Source: a phage
Strand: one strand, 5' to 3'
Length of the DNA: 43,583 nt
NCBI GenBank assembly: GCA_012646105.1
Contig: GCA_012646105.1_4328.1
Below, piece after piece: positions 1,076-36,837 of this stretch. A program made the translations under genes and the position numbers. How positions within the stretch are numbered: the stretch's first letter is position 1; each line of letters begins with the position of its first letter. Below the pieces are notes generated by a model. That model was not told the DNA's origin. It ran no database searches and was given only the letters and a program-made list of their open reading frames with translations.

Positions 1076-3706
1076 TTAACTAAAACCGTTGCTGAATCCG
1101 TCGGAGAAACCGCGACCGAAAGGTGCGACGCCGTCGTATTTGTAGAAATCTGCTTCGTAGTTAACCCCGGTAATCTTAACTGTTCTGTCATCTCCCGGGT
1201 CAACTGTAGAAACAAGAATCATCTGAGCATTATGCCTTGCTTCGTTACCGAATGAAAACTCAGTTTTTAGCGCACTATTCCCTGTGTAAATTGCTTCTTG
1301 AGGCGCGGATAACATAACCACTTCTCGGTCGTGGCTTCCCTTGATAACAGAGATACTTTGCACCGAGCCGTCGCGCTTCTTGAGAATGAGTGAATGGTCA
1401 TCTCCGGGGGTAAATGTAACTGGCTGTGATAGTGTCAGGGTAAGCCCATTAACGGCAACGACATAACCATCTTGAGGTGCTACTCGCGAGCCTTTAACTA
1501 CGCTTATTGCCCGTCCTGGAAGCACAAAAACCCCTTCTTCTGTCGCCGTGAATGATACCGTAACTTTTTTCAACAAGTTCTTCTGATACCGGCGGTACGC
1601 GGCCCAATATGCTTGCCGGTAGTTGCGGATACCTTTAGAGTCATACGTTTCAGTATTAACGCCGCCCTCGGCTGGAATGCTAATAGTCTCTTTTACGTTG
1701 GTATCAGTGTCGATGTAGGAGAACTTAAGGCTATCGTATACCTGAGAGTCGTTAAATGTGCGTGTCCATTTTTCCGAAGCTGTTGTCTTGCTGCGGTGGG
1801 TGAACACCATCTCTGGCCCCATACGTGGACGTTCGAAATCCAGTAATATGTCCTGTCCTTTACGATATGGAGTGCAGAAAATAGCATCAGCTATTGTGCT
1901 GATGATATCCTGCATGGTCGTTTTATAATCGTCAAAGGTGTAGCAGAATTGTCCTGCATCAACGTTACCGAAATAGTTTTCTATCTCGGTTTGAGTTGCT
2001 AGCAATTTATCCATATTAGATGTTGTGAGGTTGAGATTCCCTACAACCGGGTCGCGGGCCAGACGGATTAAGGACTGAACCGCCTGCGTATTCGGCGTCA
2101 TTACGGTGTCAAACACACCATTACCCAGGTATTTATAAACCATCTCAGTCGCCACCATACGTAGTTGAGGCTGCTTAATCTCTGCGGCCCGAGGCGTCTG
2201 CTTACGTGCGGAGTGTACGGTAGTACGATTGCCGTAATGGGGTGTAGTGTCACGAACCTGCCCATAAAGGTTGATGTAGGAAACCTCGTCTACCACGGTA
2301 CCCTCGAAATCAAGGTCCAGGTTGGTAACACGACGGGCGCGCACCCGAACTTTAGACCTCACGGGCAAGTCGGCGTAAATAGTAACTCCAGTGTAATCCG
2401 CCGAACGCCCTGATAAAGTGGCCTGTTTCGAGTAAATATCTCCGTATGGCATGCCAGTTTCATCAAGTAGCTGATACTGAAGCTCGACAGTTACCGCCGT
2501 TCGCAATTTGCTGCCGTTATCCTTGTACATACCATTAGCGGCCGCGATGTTGGCTACTACGCGTTCAACTTCCAGGCGGTTTAAGATAGTCCAGTCGGTT
2601 AGTGTTTTTTCATAGGTGTCCACCGGCCCCACCCACGTGTCACTTCTCTGGGAAAGTGAATAGGCTGTTGAACCTAAAGCTGCCCAGTTAGACGCGCCGC
2701 CGGTGTCGACTCGCAGCTCGAAGTTATCAACATAAAGAACGCGGAAGTTGCCGTTGGTGTTTGTCACGCCCGGAACGTCGAAGTTATTGAACGACGCGGT
2801 GTCCCCTACCGATAATATTTCAGCAAAACCAGAATCCCCCGTGTCATCATACAGGTATCCAATTTTTGTAGCGGAGTCATACCTCACACGGCCAGTGTCG
2901 CTTGGGTTGACCCGAATATCGTTCTGCGCTTTAAGAACAGCACCGTCTACTTCATTAGAAGCGATAGTTATATAAAGATTCTGATTGATAGGCTCCCCTA
3001 CCAGAAGATGAGGGGTATTTGTATTGTTGGGGGATGTAAACGGCGCGTACACCGCGACAGAGGTCCCTGTAATCTCCTGTACTTTAGTATCACCGTCAGT
3101 AATGTCTTCTGCTTTGATATCAAGGTACCCGCGACCGGCGTCGTAGTATCCGTACTCAATAATGCGACCAGATTCATCGAATATCTTATACGTAGTCATG
3201 AGGTCGTTAGGGATAGTCTGGACCCTGCCGCAAATATCATACGACCGTTCATACGGACGCGGTTTATTGTTTCGGTCCGTCAGGCTGTTGTTGGGCGACT
3301 CCGCCTGCTGATTCGCTAAACTCGTTTTAGGTGTTTTCTGTGACGGAGAAATAAGTTTAGTGACAAACTTAAGTACGCCCAATGGGTCAAGCAATTTCCC
3401 GAGAAACCCACCGCCACCGCCTGCGCCTTCGATAATATGGAAAACATCATCTTCTTTCAGCGCTTCGAAGTTTTCCGTTACGTCGGTGTCCTCACCAATC
3501 TCGCCACGGTAAATACGTACTGGTACCCCGTCTGGGATGTTGGCGACAACATATTCCATAGGGGGTACGTTATGCCGTTTGTGGTCGAAAGTACCGCCTT
3601 CATTACGGGTGTAATGTATTATTAGCGCCAAAATTCTATCTCCGCATAAGTTTCGCGCAAGTCTTCCAGACGGTCTAACCGTACCTGGCGACTCGCGAGT
3701 TCGCAA
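1076..3706 (-). CDS. central tail fibre / tail-tip host-specificity protein (876 aa ORF; alternative ATG at 3559)
   Basis: six-frame ORF; size and position after minor tail genes; Gly-rich linker GGGGGF; no good RBS at either start so coupling to upstream gene likely. Confidence 0.6.
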   Translation of the reverse strand: MRTRESPGTVRPSGRLARNLCGDRILALIIHYTRNEGGTFDHKRHNVPPMEYVVANIPDGVPVRIYRGEIGEDTDVTENFEALKEDDVFHIIEGAGGGGGFLGKLLDPLGVLKFVTKLISPSQKTPKTSLANQQAESPNNSLTDRNNKPRPYERSYDICGRVQTIPNDLMTTYKIFDESGRIIEYGYYDAGRGYLDIKAEDITDGDTKVQEITGTSVAVYAPFTSPNNTNTPHLLVGEPINQNLYITIASNEVDGAVLKAQNDIRVNPSDTGRVRYDSATKIGYLYDDTGDSGFAEILSVGDTASFNNFDVPGVTNTNGNFRVLYVDNFELRVDTGGASNWAALGSTAYSLSQRSDTWVGPVDTYEKTLTDWTILNRLEVERVVANIAAANGMYKDNGSKLRTAVTVELQYQLLDETGMPYGDIYSKQATLSGRSADYTGVTIYADLPVRSKVRVRARRVTNLDLDFEGTVVDEVSYINLYGQVRDTTPHYGNRTTVHSARKQTPRAAEIKQPQLRMVATEMVYKYLGNGVFDTVMTPNTQAVQSLIRLARDPVVGNLNLTTSNMDKLLATQTEIENYFGNVDAGQFCYTFDDYKTTMQDIISTIADAIFCTPYRKGQDILLDFERPRMGPEMVFTHRSKTTASEKWTRTFNDSQVYDSLKFSYIDTDTNVKETISIPAEGGVNTETYDSKGIRNYRQAYWAAYRRYQKNLLKKVTVSFTATEEGVFVLPGRAISVVKGSRVAPQDGYVVAVNGLTLTLSQPVTFTPGDDHSLILKKRDGSVQSISVIKGSHDREVVMLSAPQEAIYTGNSALKTEFSFGNEARHNAQMILVSTVDPGDDRTVKITGVNYEADFYKYDGVAPFGRGFSDGFSNGFS

Positions 3707-3987
3707 TGACTGACCATACCGTCATAGTATACTCCAGCGTGCCAGATTACACGGTTTCTGTGTCGTGTTGCCATAAGAACGGCATCGAAGTTTTGCGGGG
3801 TTTCCGTGCGTACAAGACCTTTAGTGTCTTTATGACCTTCTTCAAATGCATCATTAATCTGTGTTGGCGAAGCGACGTTAAACTCAGGCGTGGCGAGGCC
3901 TGCGTCCGCACGGACGTTACGCACATGGTGCCAGCAATTACGACGGCGAAAATCGTACGGTAGCCCTGTATAAGAATTAATATTCAT
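3622..3987 (-). CDS. minor tail protein (121 aa)
   Basis: six-frame ORF, ATGA-type overlap with upstream gene, position in tail-tip module. Confidence 0.5.
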   Translation of the reverse strand: MNINSYTGLPYDFRRRNCWHHVRNVRADAGLATPEFNVASPTQINDAFEEGHKDTKGLVRTETPQNFDAVLMATRHRNRVIWHAGVYYDGMVSHCELASRQVRLDRLEDLRETYAEIEFWR

Positions 3988-9029: not shown

Positions 9030-9136
9030 TATTTAATCCTTTGGTTAAGAGGTTACTGGTTAAGGTTAATGCGCCAGGCGGGAACCACCCGCTTTTCGTG
9101 TGCGACACTAGGCGCAAAATAATTCTAACACATTAC

Positions 9137-26061: not shown

Positions 26062-26598
26062 TCATTTAACAGCCCTCCCAATAGCCTCAGCCTCTTGCCA
26101 CGGTTTACCGTCGAACAGCGCCAGACGCCCGGCTGTACGGCGACGCAGGCCAAGTAGTGGTTTGCCGTTCTGGTTGATGAACAGTGCCAGCTTAGCCCGC
26201 AGTGTTGCAGTATCACCAGAACGCAGTGCCTTGCCTGTGCCCGTAGTAGACGCAATCACGCCAGCACCTGCGTTATACACCAGGTCACACACTGCATCGA
26301 ACTGCGACTGTGTCAGTGAATGGTGTGCTACTGCATCAACCGCAGCTACGGCCTTAGCCATATCGCGATTCAGTAACAGGAGGCCTTGCCCCTTCGTAAT
26401 CTTCTGCCCTTCATACACATGAGGGCCATAGCTTCCGTAGCCTATGGTTAAGTATTTTTCCGAAGGTGTCGCGCGGTATGCGGTCCCGCGGAAATCTTCC
26501 CACGCAGCGGTAAAATGCAATCCGTTATCTGAAATGTTTCGAGACACGCTTATGTCCTCCGTATGACAGCCACGCCTGACGAATCTGGCGCAGCGCAA
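26062..26598 (-). CDS. endolysin, T4-lysozyme-like (likely GTG start at 26547 preceded by GGAGGA)
   Basis: catalytic-region pattern NGLHFTAAWEDFRGTAYRA...LTIGYG. Confidence 0.8.
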   Translation of the reverse strand: MRCARFVRRGCHTEDISVSRNISDNGLHFTAAWEDFRGTAYRATPSEKYLTIGYGSYGPHVYEGQKITKGQGLLLLNRDMAKAVAAVDAVAHHSLTQSQFDAVCDLVYNAGAGVIASTTGTGKALRSGDTATLRAKLALFINQNGKPLLGLRRRTAGRLALFDGKPWQEAEAIGRAVK

Positions 26599-26797
26599 CT
26601 AATGTGATTAATGTCTCGGGTAGCGTAGGCGACATGCTGCCCTGTAACAGGTGGATACATCCGGCGGCGCAGACGATGGCGGTCAGAATATAGAGCACCC
26701 TGCCAAATAACCCGTCGTCCACGCGTTCATTATACACGTTGAACAAGGACGAAGCGCCCATCGCCAGCATTACGACAAACCAGAATAGCTCAGTCAT
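26525..26797 (-). CDS. second lysis membrane protein (2 TM; antiholin or pinholin candidate)
   Basis: ATG 26797 with RBS GGGAGG; two hydrophobic helices; between holin and endolysin. Confidence 0.5.
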   Translation of the reverse strand: MTELFWFVVMLAMGASSLFNVYNERVDDGLFGRVLYILTAIVCAAGCIHLLQGSMSPTLPETLITLVALRQIRQAWLSYGGHKRVSKHFR

Positions 26798-27098
26798 GCG
26801 GTCCTCCCGGGCGGGCAATATCACCGCCCGATACGATGCCAGAAAGGCGGGAATAGATAGGCATCCAGAGAATGGCAATGATGAATCCGAGGCCAGCTAT
26901 CTCGCGCTCACCGGTAATACCGAACCATTGAGCGGCAAGAGGTGCGCCGAAAATAGCACACGCGAAGCCGGTTAGAAGAAATACCAGTCCGTCGACTGGA
27001 CCGGATATAGACTTTTTATGTTGTCTTAGTCCGACCAATCCACCGACCAGTGCGGCAGCGAGAAGCCAGCCTGTCACTGTTTCAGTAAATTTATCCAA
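26790..27098 (-). CDS. holin (102 aa, three predicted TM, TTG start with GGAGGA RBS)
   Basis: three hydrophobic segments, charged C-terminus, upstream of endolysin. Confidence 0.6.
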   Translation of the reverse strand: MDKFTETVTGWLLAAALVGGLVGLRQHKKSISGPVDGLVFLLTGFACAIFGAPLAAQWFGITGEREIAGLGFIIAILWMPIYSRLSGIVSGGDIARPGGPHD

Positions 27099-27119
27099 GA
27101 TAAATCCTCCAGGTGCGTA

Positions 27120-27608
27120 TTAAGTATGCAGTAACTGGAGGATAGCACGGTTAGGAATTATCCTAATAGTTGTTTGGTAATAATCTTGCCGCCTGTGTTG
27201 GTGTCGAACTTCGATGCAACGGCTACGCCGCCATGCGCCGCCATGCGCCGAATATCCGCACTCCATAGCGGCTAATGCATATGGCGAGCCAGACCCCACG
27301 GCGGCGTACACATCAGCAACCGGAATAACTGAACTAAGCGCACAATCCCATGATTTATAGAACGCGACTTTGTACACCTTTTCTGTGTCTTTCACGAACA
27401 CCAGGGCTTCGAAATCGAAGTCATAGTGCTGTGGCCGAAGAATACCAGGGCAATCGATAAGCATAGTGCCAACTCCTGCGTCGCCAGCCACACCAATAAC
27501 AGCAAAATCATTCTCATATATCTTTGTGTCTGTGTTGTAGCAGTTACTTCCGCACACAACACGGGTGTCACAACCCATTGTCTTTCCGTCAAATGCGATA
27601 GTAGTCAT
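27120..27608 (-). CDS. HslV-like Ntn-hydrolase peptidase homolog, C-terminus possibly frameshifted by a 10 bp duplication
   Basis: MTTIAFDGK N-terminus, NDFAVIGVAGDAG and AVGSGSPYALAAM blocks resemble HslV; tandem CCATGCGCCG x2 at 27231-27250. Confidence 0.5.
   Translation of the reverse strand: MTTIAFDGKTMGCDTRVVCGSNCYNTDTKIYENDFAVIGVAGDAGVGTMLIDCPGILRPQHYDFDFEALVFVKDTEKVYKVAFYKSWDCALSSVIPVADVYAAVGSGSPYALAAMECGYSAHGGAWRRSRCIEVRHQHRRQDYYQTTIRIIPNRAILQLLHT
27231..27250. repeat. perfect 10 bp tandem duplication CCATGCGCCG-CCATGCGCCG inside coding sequence
   Basis: seen directly in sequence. Confidence 0.9.
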
Positions 27609-27901
27609 TTATGTCTCCAGATGTATTGTCGTCTCTGTGGTTTCGTCGGAGTATCATCGTATCCCAGCGATTTCCAGTAATTAAATAGCCGATTAGCGAT
27701 AGCCGCGCGTTCCTGTGTTTTAAACTCACCGAGATTCACCGCCTTCCCGTTCTGGAACCCGCAGGCGCGGACAGCTTTTCGTCTGGCCTGAATCTCAGGG
27801 TACAGCGCGTTACGGTGGCGCTTGTGTATACGCGTCTTAGCTCTCGGTGACAGCGGCGCAAGACCGCTTCGTTTCAGGATGTCAGTTGCAAGAGACATCA
27901 C
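27605..27901 (-). CDS. hypothetical early protein (98 aa, basic)
   Basis: six-frame ORF, ATGA coupling. Confidence 0.45.
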   Translation of the reverse strand: MMSLATDILKRSGLAPLSPRAKTRIHKRHRNALYPEIQARRKAVRACGFQNGKAVNLGEFKTQERAAIANRLFNYWKSLGYDDTPTKPQRRQYIWRHK

Positions 27902-34389: not shown

Positions 34390-34883
34390 ATTGGCATGAA
34401 GTTTTTGACTATGACCCTGATACCGGTAAATTATTTTGGAAAATAAGTCCGTCAAAATCTGTAAAAATAGGGCAAGAAGCTGGCAGTACGAGGGAGGACA
34501 ACGACGGGAGTGAATTTAAAATACTACGTTTTAACGGGACTACTAAACTTATCCACCACGTAGTTTGGGAGATGTTTAACGGGCCGATAGCGCCGGGGGA
34601 AGTAATTCGTCATAAAAATAAAGATAGAACTGATAACAGAATAGAAAATCTTATAAAAATGCGCCGAGGTAGTATCGCACACGGCACCAACATACGGACG
34701 GACAATACTTCAGGGGTTAAAGGTGTTGGGTTTCATAAACGCTACGGTAAGTGGGTCGCGAGAATTTATGTAGACGGCAGGCCGATTTATTTAGGGGCCT
34801 ACGATAAGTTAGAGAACGCGGCTAAGGCTCGTAGGCAAGCCGAGATTAAATATGGGTTTACAGTTAACGGGGCTGAGAAATGA
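34386..34883 (+). CDS. HNH endonuclease with AP2-type DNA-binding domain (free-standing homing endonuclease)
   Basis: HHVVWEMFNGPIAPGEVIRHKNKDRTDNRIENL HNH motif; GVKGVGFHKRYGKWVARIYVDGRPIYLGAY AP2-like. Confidence 0.75.
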   Translation: MNWHEVFDYDPDTGKLFWKISPSKSVKIGQEAGSTREDNDGSEFKILRFNGTTKLIHHVVWEMFNGPIAPGEVIRHKNKDRTDNRIENLIKMRRGSIAHGTNIRTDNTSGVKGVGFHKRYGKWVARIYVDGRPIYLGAYDKLENAAKARRQAEIKYGFTVNGAEK

Positions 34884-36207: not shown

Positions 36208-36837
36208 ATGGGTATTAAACTGAATCTGCGTAAAGTAAACACTGCATGGGTTAACGTATTCGAACGTGCTGCCGACTCTGAGGACAAGAAAACAGGTAAA
36301 CTGATTAAGGGTAAATACCAAGTTACGGTTCTTATGCAGCCTGACCATCCTCAAATTGATGCGCTTTATGATACCGCGCTGGAAGTTGTAACCGAGGCAA
36401 TCGGGGCCGCTGCTGCCGAGAAATGGATGAAAGCCAACTATGGCGTCGACCACCACGCGGACAAGTGCTGTGTACGTGACCTGGCAATGCGAGACAATCC
36501 TATTGAGGATTTTGAAGAAGGTCTGTATTTCCGGGCCACTAACAACCGTCAACCGGTGATTATGACATCGGCTAAAGGTGAAAAACAAACCGAGCCTGAT
36601 TTCAACATCGACGGGAAAGAAATCGAAGGCGAGCAGGTATATAGCGGATGTGTCGCAAACGTATCTGTAGAATTATGGTGGCACAAAGATTGGAAAAACC
36701 TGTGCGCTACCATCCTCGGCATCAAGTATATGGGCGAAGGTAAACGCTTCGGAGGCTCCAGTGTAGTAGCGAGCACCGATGACCTGGAAGACGACGAAGA
36801 AGATGAAGCACCGCGCCGCGAACGTCGTCGCCGTTAA
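36208..36837 (+). CDS. DUF2815-like putative ssDNA-binding protein (209 aa)
   Basis: position between Cas4-like nuclease and DNA polymerase; acidic C-terminal tail. Confidence 0.55.
   Translation: MGIKLNLRKVNTAWVNVFERAADSEDKKTGKLIKGKYQVTVLMQPDHPQIDALYDTALEVVTEAIGAAAAEKWMKANYGVDHHADKCCVRDLAMRDNPIEDFEEGLYFRATNNRQPVIMTSAKGEKQTEPDFNIDGKEIEGEQVYSGCVANVSVELWWHKDWKNLCATILGIKYMGEGKRFGGSSVVASTDDLEDDEEDEAPRRERRRR

Follow-up and report, generated by a model that had tools for sequence, protein, structure and literature searches.

The viral proteasome homologues of the PPH family have been described as proteins of ~140 residues encoded by tailed phages of proteobacteria and by their hosts, which possess no propeptide, miss helix H2 as well as the C-terminal S12/H5 elements and conserve the triad Thr1/Asp17/Lys33 together with Gly47 (Fuchs, Alva & Lupas 2021; PMC8665760). 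Apart from this description, almost nothing specific about phage HslV-like proteins has been found, and the literature located contains no biochemical characterisation of a PPH protein. The nucleophile of the known proteasome-beta/HslV superfamily members is the N-terminal Thr. The contribution of residues located further towards the C-terminus has been addressed in the proteasome itself, where Asp166 and Ser129 act as a proton shuttle to the Thr1 amine and where the exchange D166A abolishes autolysis and catalysis of the archaeal proteasome, while D166N cuts the activity of the yeast proteasome by about 60% (PMC4792962).

The window, that is the whole stretch of 43,583 nucleotides analysed here, represents a Kagunavirus-like (Guernseyvirinae) Escherichia coli siphophage which is ~90% identical to, for example, phage BUCT825 over the matching parts. 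It carries a PPH-type gene with a tandem duplication of 10 bp, which we regard with considerable confidence as a real, recent and ordinary slippage duplication that most likely inactivates a gene which the phage can dispense with and which belongs to a known phage protein family. The gene consists of the following parts:

27120..27608, minus strand: PPH-type mini proteasome-beta/HslV-like gene in its present frame, 162 codons plus a TAA stop at 27122-27120 (from the open reading frame list)
27237..27608, minus strand: native part of the gene, codons 1-124 (from family alignments A2 and A4; 90% identity to P0001)
27226..27250, minus strand: tandem repeat tract with two copies of CGGCGCATGG followed by CGGCG (from Tandem Repeats Finder and alignments to relatives)
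27123..27236, minus strand: foreign Arg-rich tail AWRRSRCIEVRHQHRRQDYYQTTIRIIPNRAILQLLHT, codons 125-162, the product of a +1 shift (from translation)
27158..27226, minus strand: coding sequence of the ancestral C-terminus, no longer in frame, for VAVASKFDTNTGGKIITKQLLG plus a TAA at 27160-27158 (from tblastn, second segment in frame -2)

Read on the minus strand, the site has the order TATT, CGGCGCATGG, CGGCGCATGG, CGGCG and TAGCC, which on the plus strand corresponds to two copies of CCATGCGCCG at 27231-27250, with the extra 10 bp being assignable equally to 27231-27240 or to 27241-27250. The preliminary description of this DNA had reported a perfect 10-bp tandem duplication at 27231-27250 in the open reading frame 27120-27608; this is borne out by the sequence and by Tandem Repeats Finder, in which the array 27226-27250 (period 10, 2.5 copies, 100% matches) is the top-scoring one of the 43.6-kb window. 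An equally long periodic run of any period from 4 to 30 was found in 1 of 200 mononucleotide shuffles of the window. Removal of one copy leads to a 146-aa protein ending in GGVAVASKFDTNTGGKIITKQLLG, with its stop at 27160-27158, where the preliminary description had placed it at about 27158. The 162-aa version and this repaired 146-aa version are the same up to residue 124, after which 38 foreign residues stand instead of the 22 native ones. A second, weak tandem repeat has been observed at window positions 36787-36808, with 2.4 copies of GAAGAAGAC and 84% matches, and falls within the counterpart of BUCT825 CDS 3305-3931, a gene with no more than 65% identity in the window.

Sequence profiles and a structural model place the protein in the proteasome-beta/HslV superfamily with its Ntn hydrolase fold. 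An exhaustive profile search collected 3777 cluster representatives at E<=0.001, most of them 135-160 aa long and aligned from residue 1, and in the PDB the family profile A4 matched T. maritima HslV (E = 3e-13), the proteasome subunit beta5i (E = 6e-13) and BPH (E = 9e-12). The repaired protein has been modelled with AF2 from an alignment of 122 sequences at a mean pLDDT of 95.1; an earlier model from 29 sequences of 80-95% identity, with a pLDDT of 32.6, was unusable and has been replaced by this alignment with its distant relatives. A Foldseek comparison of the model with the PDB gave 37 hits at E<=0.001, every one of them a proteasome or HslV chain, with beta5 and beta5i at the top (beta5, 6.6e-7; S. 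aureus HslV, 1.4e-6, TM 0.69/0.60), and a further search of predicted viral structures gave 37 hits at E<=0.001. The closest among these viral structures, BFVD A0A1W6DWU9, is 54% identical over 131 columns with a total length of 263 aa and may represent either a fused PPH gene or one wrongly annotated as too long. The Pfam model PF00227 (Proteasome) is matched at E<=0.01 by 75 of the 122 family members; the scores of 17.4 bits for the gene as it stands, 18.7 bits for the repaired protein and 19.1 bits for P0001 stay below its gathering threshold of 22.4 bits.

Within the superfamily, the repaired protein fits the PPH family by its published description on every feature compared. It has 146 aa with neither propeptide nor C-terminal extension, to be set beside the ~140 residues of the family, and the window and its relatives belong to Guernseyvirinae/Kagunavirus, in line with the occurrence of PPH in tailed phages and prophage regions. 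In the AF2 model, one short helix (46-51) precedes H3 (108-116) and H4 (121-131), as predicted for a fold that misses H2. The native part of the gene keeps Thr2, Asp14, Lys29, Gly42 and Ser106 as counterparts of Thr1, Asp17, Lys33, Gly47 and Ser129, respectively, and in the family alignment of 122 diverse members K29 and G42 are invariant and T2, D14, S106, D132 and G136 nearly invariant. The triad together with Gly47 is thereby present, including the conserved Thr at the nucleophile position. The start MTTIAF had already been related to the catalytic Thr of such hydrolases, a reading consistent with the near-invariance of T2, with removal of the N-terminal Met as a prediction. The likeness is one to the family as described and not to its representative WP_042125023.1, and the window copy differs from the family in being frameshifted after residue 124.

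The designation 'HslV-like', under which the gene had first been presented, holds with respect to the superfamily, as supported by the profile match to HslV and by Foldseek, but not with respect to HslV itself. The repaired protein scores 12.6 bits against the HslV equivalog TIGR03692 (cut-off 157.75) and 11.8 bits against NF003964 (cut-off 137), far below either cut-off, and an HslV orthologue has been rejected on these grounds. HslV (ClpQ) shares the superfamily, the fold, the N-terminal Thr and a GSG...YA motif with the window protein, which is, however, ~30 residues shorter, has no H2 and is equally close to 20S beta5/beta5i and BPH. No HslU-type ATPase is named among the 77 annotated genes of BUCT825. 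With 20S beta subunits and BPH, on the other hand, the profile match spans almost the entire length and takes in the C-terminal motif FD..TGG / RD..SGG, whereas the window protein has neither propeptide nor H2 and is ~50-60 residues shorter.

Alignment to relatives, which had been proposed as a check on the duplication, has identified no relative with a second copy. Each of the 34 GenBank phage records covering the site lacks exactly 10 bases, all 23 IMG/VR loci at the site are intact with an uninterrupted protein, and the extra 10 bases occur in none of these 57 related phage loci (34 GenBank records, 23 IMG/VR contigs). A 10-base gap opens in every relative aligned, namely M01, CR01, BUCT825, G AB-2017 and the loci L005, L006 and L033. 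The single-copy frame had been favoured from the beginning as the conserved one, and in agreement with this the best 120 protein homologues are nearly all 146 aa long and start with MTT, with none of them reaching 162 aa. An exact 25-mer of the tract had no match in IMG/VR; in genome and metagenome collections it was encountered at 23 loci, all unrelated and nearly all G+C-rich, which match 25-39 bases around the repeat, and the complete E. coli genomes searched with the region gave no match. In the public collections, the frameshifted protein is found only on the Logan contig SRR10990360_67 (43,656 bp), to which the window corresponds and in which the gene is identical to that of the window.

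When a near-identical sister genome was sought with the frameshifted protein and with the 97-aa protein encoded upstream, each matched the source contig alone, and the best match in this region is ~90-91% identical, with CR01 and M01 being closest; as none near-identical was found, the duplication is undatable against a sister genome. Its age can be approached by the remnant it has put out of frame, which in the window differs from six relatives at synonymous sites alone, with 0 non-synonymous differences, and which therefore points to a recent frameshift. The motif CGGCG-CATGG-CGGCG, perfect in CR01 and M01 and degenerate in BUCT825 and G AB-2017 (CGGTG, TGGTG), is, by comparison of these sequences, considered the ancestral state of the site.

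A 5-bp direct repeat spaced by 5 bp is a classic substrate for slipped-strand mispairing. The gene of this lineage would have carried two such direct repeats, 5 bp apart, in the form CGGCG-CATGG-CGGCG, and mispairing of the slipped strands between them during replication would have doubled the 10-bp unit, with the ten extra bases causing a +1 frameshift after codon 124. The locus has this in common with microhomology-mediated tandem duplication by replication slippage, that a pre-existing 5-bp direct repeat bounds the unit and that the copy is perfect and head-to-tail; nothing about it is unusual, with the mechanism read from the sequence.

Alternatively, library preparation, sequencing or assembly might have introduced the extra 10 bases artificially, in which case the gene of the phage would be intact with 146 codons. 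This is unlikely, even though the frameshifted protein is present on one contig of one run only, the contig is an automatic, uncurated assembly and an undecayed downstream remnant is equally expected from an artefact. Furthermore, the 1-bp indel that the GenBank relative M01 harbours in the same gene could itself be a sequencing error. On the other hand, Logan contigs are derived from a 31-mer de Bruijn graph from which k-mers seen once are discarded (PMC12424806). As the tract of 25 bases is shorter than k=31, the assembler cannot create it, and the 31-mers spanning it, as every 31-mer of the k=31 contig, need to be present at least twice in the reads; by the method of assembly, the duplication must thus be present in the reads. 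Among the 58 BUCT825 proteins that match the window, PPH alone is split between frames, so that errors are not a general feature of the assembly. Base-calling errors do not typically take the form of a perfect 10-bp tandem duplication either.

With a slippage duplication as the preferred explanation, the effect on the protein depends on what has been lost at the C-terminus. When both C-terminal versions are subjected to profile search, as the preliminary description had proposed, the repaired one wins: PHROG 1040 ('peptidase HslV family') is matched with 119.1 bits over residues 1-143 by the repaired protein and with 92.5 bits over residues 1-122 by the present frame. A distant-member profile, built solely from relatives of <=40% identity, gives 133.0 bits for the whole repaired protein versus 101.2 bits for the gene as it stands and, for the tail alone, 27.6 bits for the repaired and -2.0 bits for the shifted version. 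A comparison of 13 Kagunavirus genes without gaps yields a dN/dS of 0.12 for codons 125-146, next to 0.12-0.13 for codons 1-124, which indicates that the last 22 native residues are under purifying selection.

Past the shift point, the AF2 model of the repaired protein shows a helix (121-131) and a strand (139-143) with a pLDDT of 93-99. The profile alignment to proteasome beta5i positions FD..TGG opposite RDSYSGG, a segment which we take to contain Asp166, Ser169 and Gly170 by standard proteasome numbering. According to alignment and model, the out-of-frame segment encodes most of helix H4, the loop equivalent to Asp166/Ser169 (D132, T135 and G136) and the last beta-strand. The present product would retain the equivalents of Thr1, Asp17, Lys33, Gly47 and Ser129, lose this part of H4, the loop and the last core beta-strand, and gain 38 unrelated Arg-rich residues. 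Since the C-terminal 22 residues are constrained and include the counterparts of Asp166 and Ser169, the frameshifted product is probably inactive; the 162-aa protein, misfolded or catalytically dead, would thus represent a fresh pseudogene.

That the frameshifted protein is still a working enzyme, for which residues 1-124 are enough and the C-terminus is a replaceable appendage, appears very improbable. Thr2, Asp14, Lys29, Gly42 and Ser106 are all retained, and natural alleles cut off at residues 115-116 exist on assembled phage contigs. Against an active enzyme stand the constraint on the C-terminal 22 codons, which at a dN/dS of 0.12 equals that on the rest of the gene, the nearly invariant D132 and G136 in the lost part, the lost helix and core strand modelled at pLDDT >93 and the Asp166 equivalent, which is required for efficient catalysis in the proteasome (PMC4792962).

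The frameshift also alters the distance between the end of translation and the adjacent lysis gene, for which three further features on the minus strand are of relevance:

26790..27098, minus strand: holin gene, intact, with a TTG start at 27098-27096 (98% identical to the BUCT825 holin, in one segment)
27104..27143, minus strand: conserved hairpin with the 5' arm AUCCUCCAG at 27143-27135 and the 3' arm CUGGAGGAU at 27112-27104 (from folding)
27151..27166, minus strand: small hairpin UUAGGA-UAAU-UCCUAA, whose loop contains the ancestral stop codon (from folding; kept nearly unchanged in relatives without the gene)

The hairpin at 27104-27143 has a minimum free energy of -22.3 kcal/mol for a 91-nt stretch (z = -4.0), holds the holin Shine-Dalgarno sequence GGAGG in its 3' arm and possesses arms that are invariant in all Kagunavirus-type loci. 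In 10 more divergent loci with a 144-aa protein (L051, L053-L060; ~1075-1110), a hairpin of other sequence but identical layout is found, with a U-run and a GTG start behind it. As a joint alignment and fold of the Kagunavirus-type and the divergent hairpins misaligned the arms and predicted no pairs, the sequences have been folded singly. The presence of hairpins ahead of non-ATG holin starts suggests a conserved translational or termination control of the holin. Rfam as well as terminator and promoter scans detected nothing at the locus. Elsewhere in the window, at 9054-9118 on the minus strand, the Rfam int-alpA RNA (RF02996) was observed with 36.9 bits versus a gathering threshold of 35.8 bits (E = 3.8e-4).

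In the ancestral frame, 14 nt separate the PPH stop from the 5' arm of the hairpin at 27104-27143, and in each of the 31 relatives whose sequence has been read here, the gene preceding the holin has its stop ahead of the hairpin. The frameshifted open reading frame crosses the 5' arm and stops at 27122-27120 in the loop, 22 nt before the holin TTG; as it reads through the 5' arm, ribosomes could, judged from this geometry, unmask the holin ribosome-binding site. The repeat might accordingly be regarded as a functional switch, either as a programmed frameshift or phase-variable site or as an adaptive mutation that couples holin translation to the upstream open reading frame and changes lysis timing. 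The new stop in the loop of a stable, conserved hairpin holding the holin GGAGG, the end of upstream translation ahead of the hairpin in all 31 relatives read and the two other alleles that truncate the protein at codons 116 and 117 speak for such a switch, which is nevertheless highly unlikely. With the second copy absent from all 57 loci, none of which has more than 1.5 copies, and with the repeat mostly degenerate, the copy number is invariable; the shifted tail has no homologue, and the nonsense alleles, with their stops a long way ahead of the hairpin, do not entail the proposed coupling. In particular, it is very doubtful that the duplication is a selected change in lysis control, in which an open reading frame through the 5' arm would tie translation of the holin to the PPH frame and make the latent period shorter. 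A phase-variable (contingency) repeat has been rejected on the copy number in the 57 loci and a programmed ribosomal frameshift on the unconserved second copy, the score of the shifted tail against the distant-member profile and a direct reading of the sequence downstream of the repeat, which contains no slippery heptamer. Of the three origins initially considered, a recent frameshift is hence favoured, regulated slippage is largely excluded for the reasons just given and an assembly slip is largely excluded by the relation of the 25-base tract to the k=31 graph.

All relatives examined that carry the PPH gene have it directly upstream of the holin. The initial view that a phage HslV homologue beside the lysis cassette is uncommon does not hold, considering this constant position, the existence of PHROG 1040, the 37 predicted viral structures and the 3777 cluster representatives. 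The gene is present in 34 of 117 matching phage records, and about two thirds of the Kagunavirus records do not have it. An identical holin protein is encoded on 11 contigs, which differ in whether they carry the PPH gene. On gene-less contigs (L034, L035 and L039), the stop region of the upstream gene joins directly to TTATTAGGATAATTCC with a clean boundary, and the boundaries of presence and absence are situated at window positions 27605-27620 and 27158-27175 on the minus strand. The small hairpin at 27151-27166 (minus strand) marks the deletion/insertion boundary in relatives without the gene. The PPH gene is thus accessory and dispensable within the genus, and because of this dispensability the phage would tolerate the damage caused by the frameshift.

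Further along the lysis region, BUCT825 has, between its lysozyme and its second holin-like gene, a small open reading frame together with a gene annotated as an endonuclease (L007:14727-15238). At window positions 26528-26541 both of these are absent, and the sole endonuclease match of the window, at 34548-34850, is 30% identical.

Damaged alleles of the PPH gene have equally been encountered in relatives. Phage M01 (OR061069.1; L001:1643-2090) carries an independent 1-bp insertion at about nt 183, by which CCATACG becomes CCATTACG, and its damaged gene has been annotated only as a truncated CDS; vB_Eco_AMO_3701M, with the same record length and match coordinates, probably shares this insertion. 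Nonsense codons interrupt the gene at codon 117 in L005:262-612 (TTA to TGA) and at codon 116 in L006:1501-1848 (GAA to TAA), two metagenomic or Logan contigs with different allele types. These nonsense codons are adjacent and located just upstream of the duplication site; their clustering may be a matter of detection bias, as any shorter truncations would have fallen outside the hits listed. As a separate observation, two sharply different alleles after ...YALAAM, ECGYSAHGGVAVASK and YLGHTATRAITVASQ, occur side by side in genes that otherwise resemble each other (window 27161-27260, minus strand; A2 columns 121-135), which suggests recombination within the gene.

For the annotation of the window, the open reading frame 27120-27608 should be labelled as a frameshifted PPH-type proteasome homologue (probable pseudogene) and not as a 162-aa HslV peptidase. 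Beyond annotation, the significance of the duplication is small, and for work on lysis timing the conserved hairpin over the holin ribosome-binding site is a better lead than the duplication. Together with the gene-less relatives, the four independently damaged alleles, to which this case belongs, add to the evidence that PPH is dispensable for growth of Kagunavirus, which is useful background for finding the role of this viral proteasome homologue.
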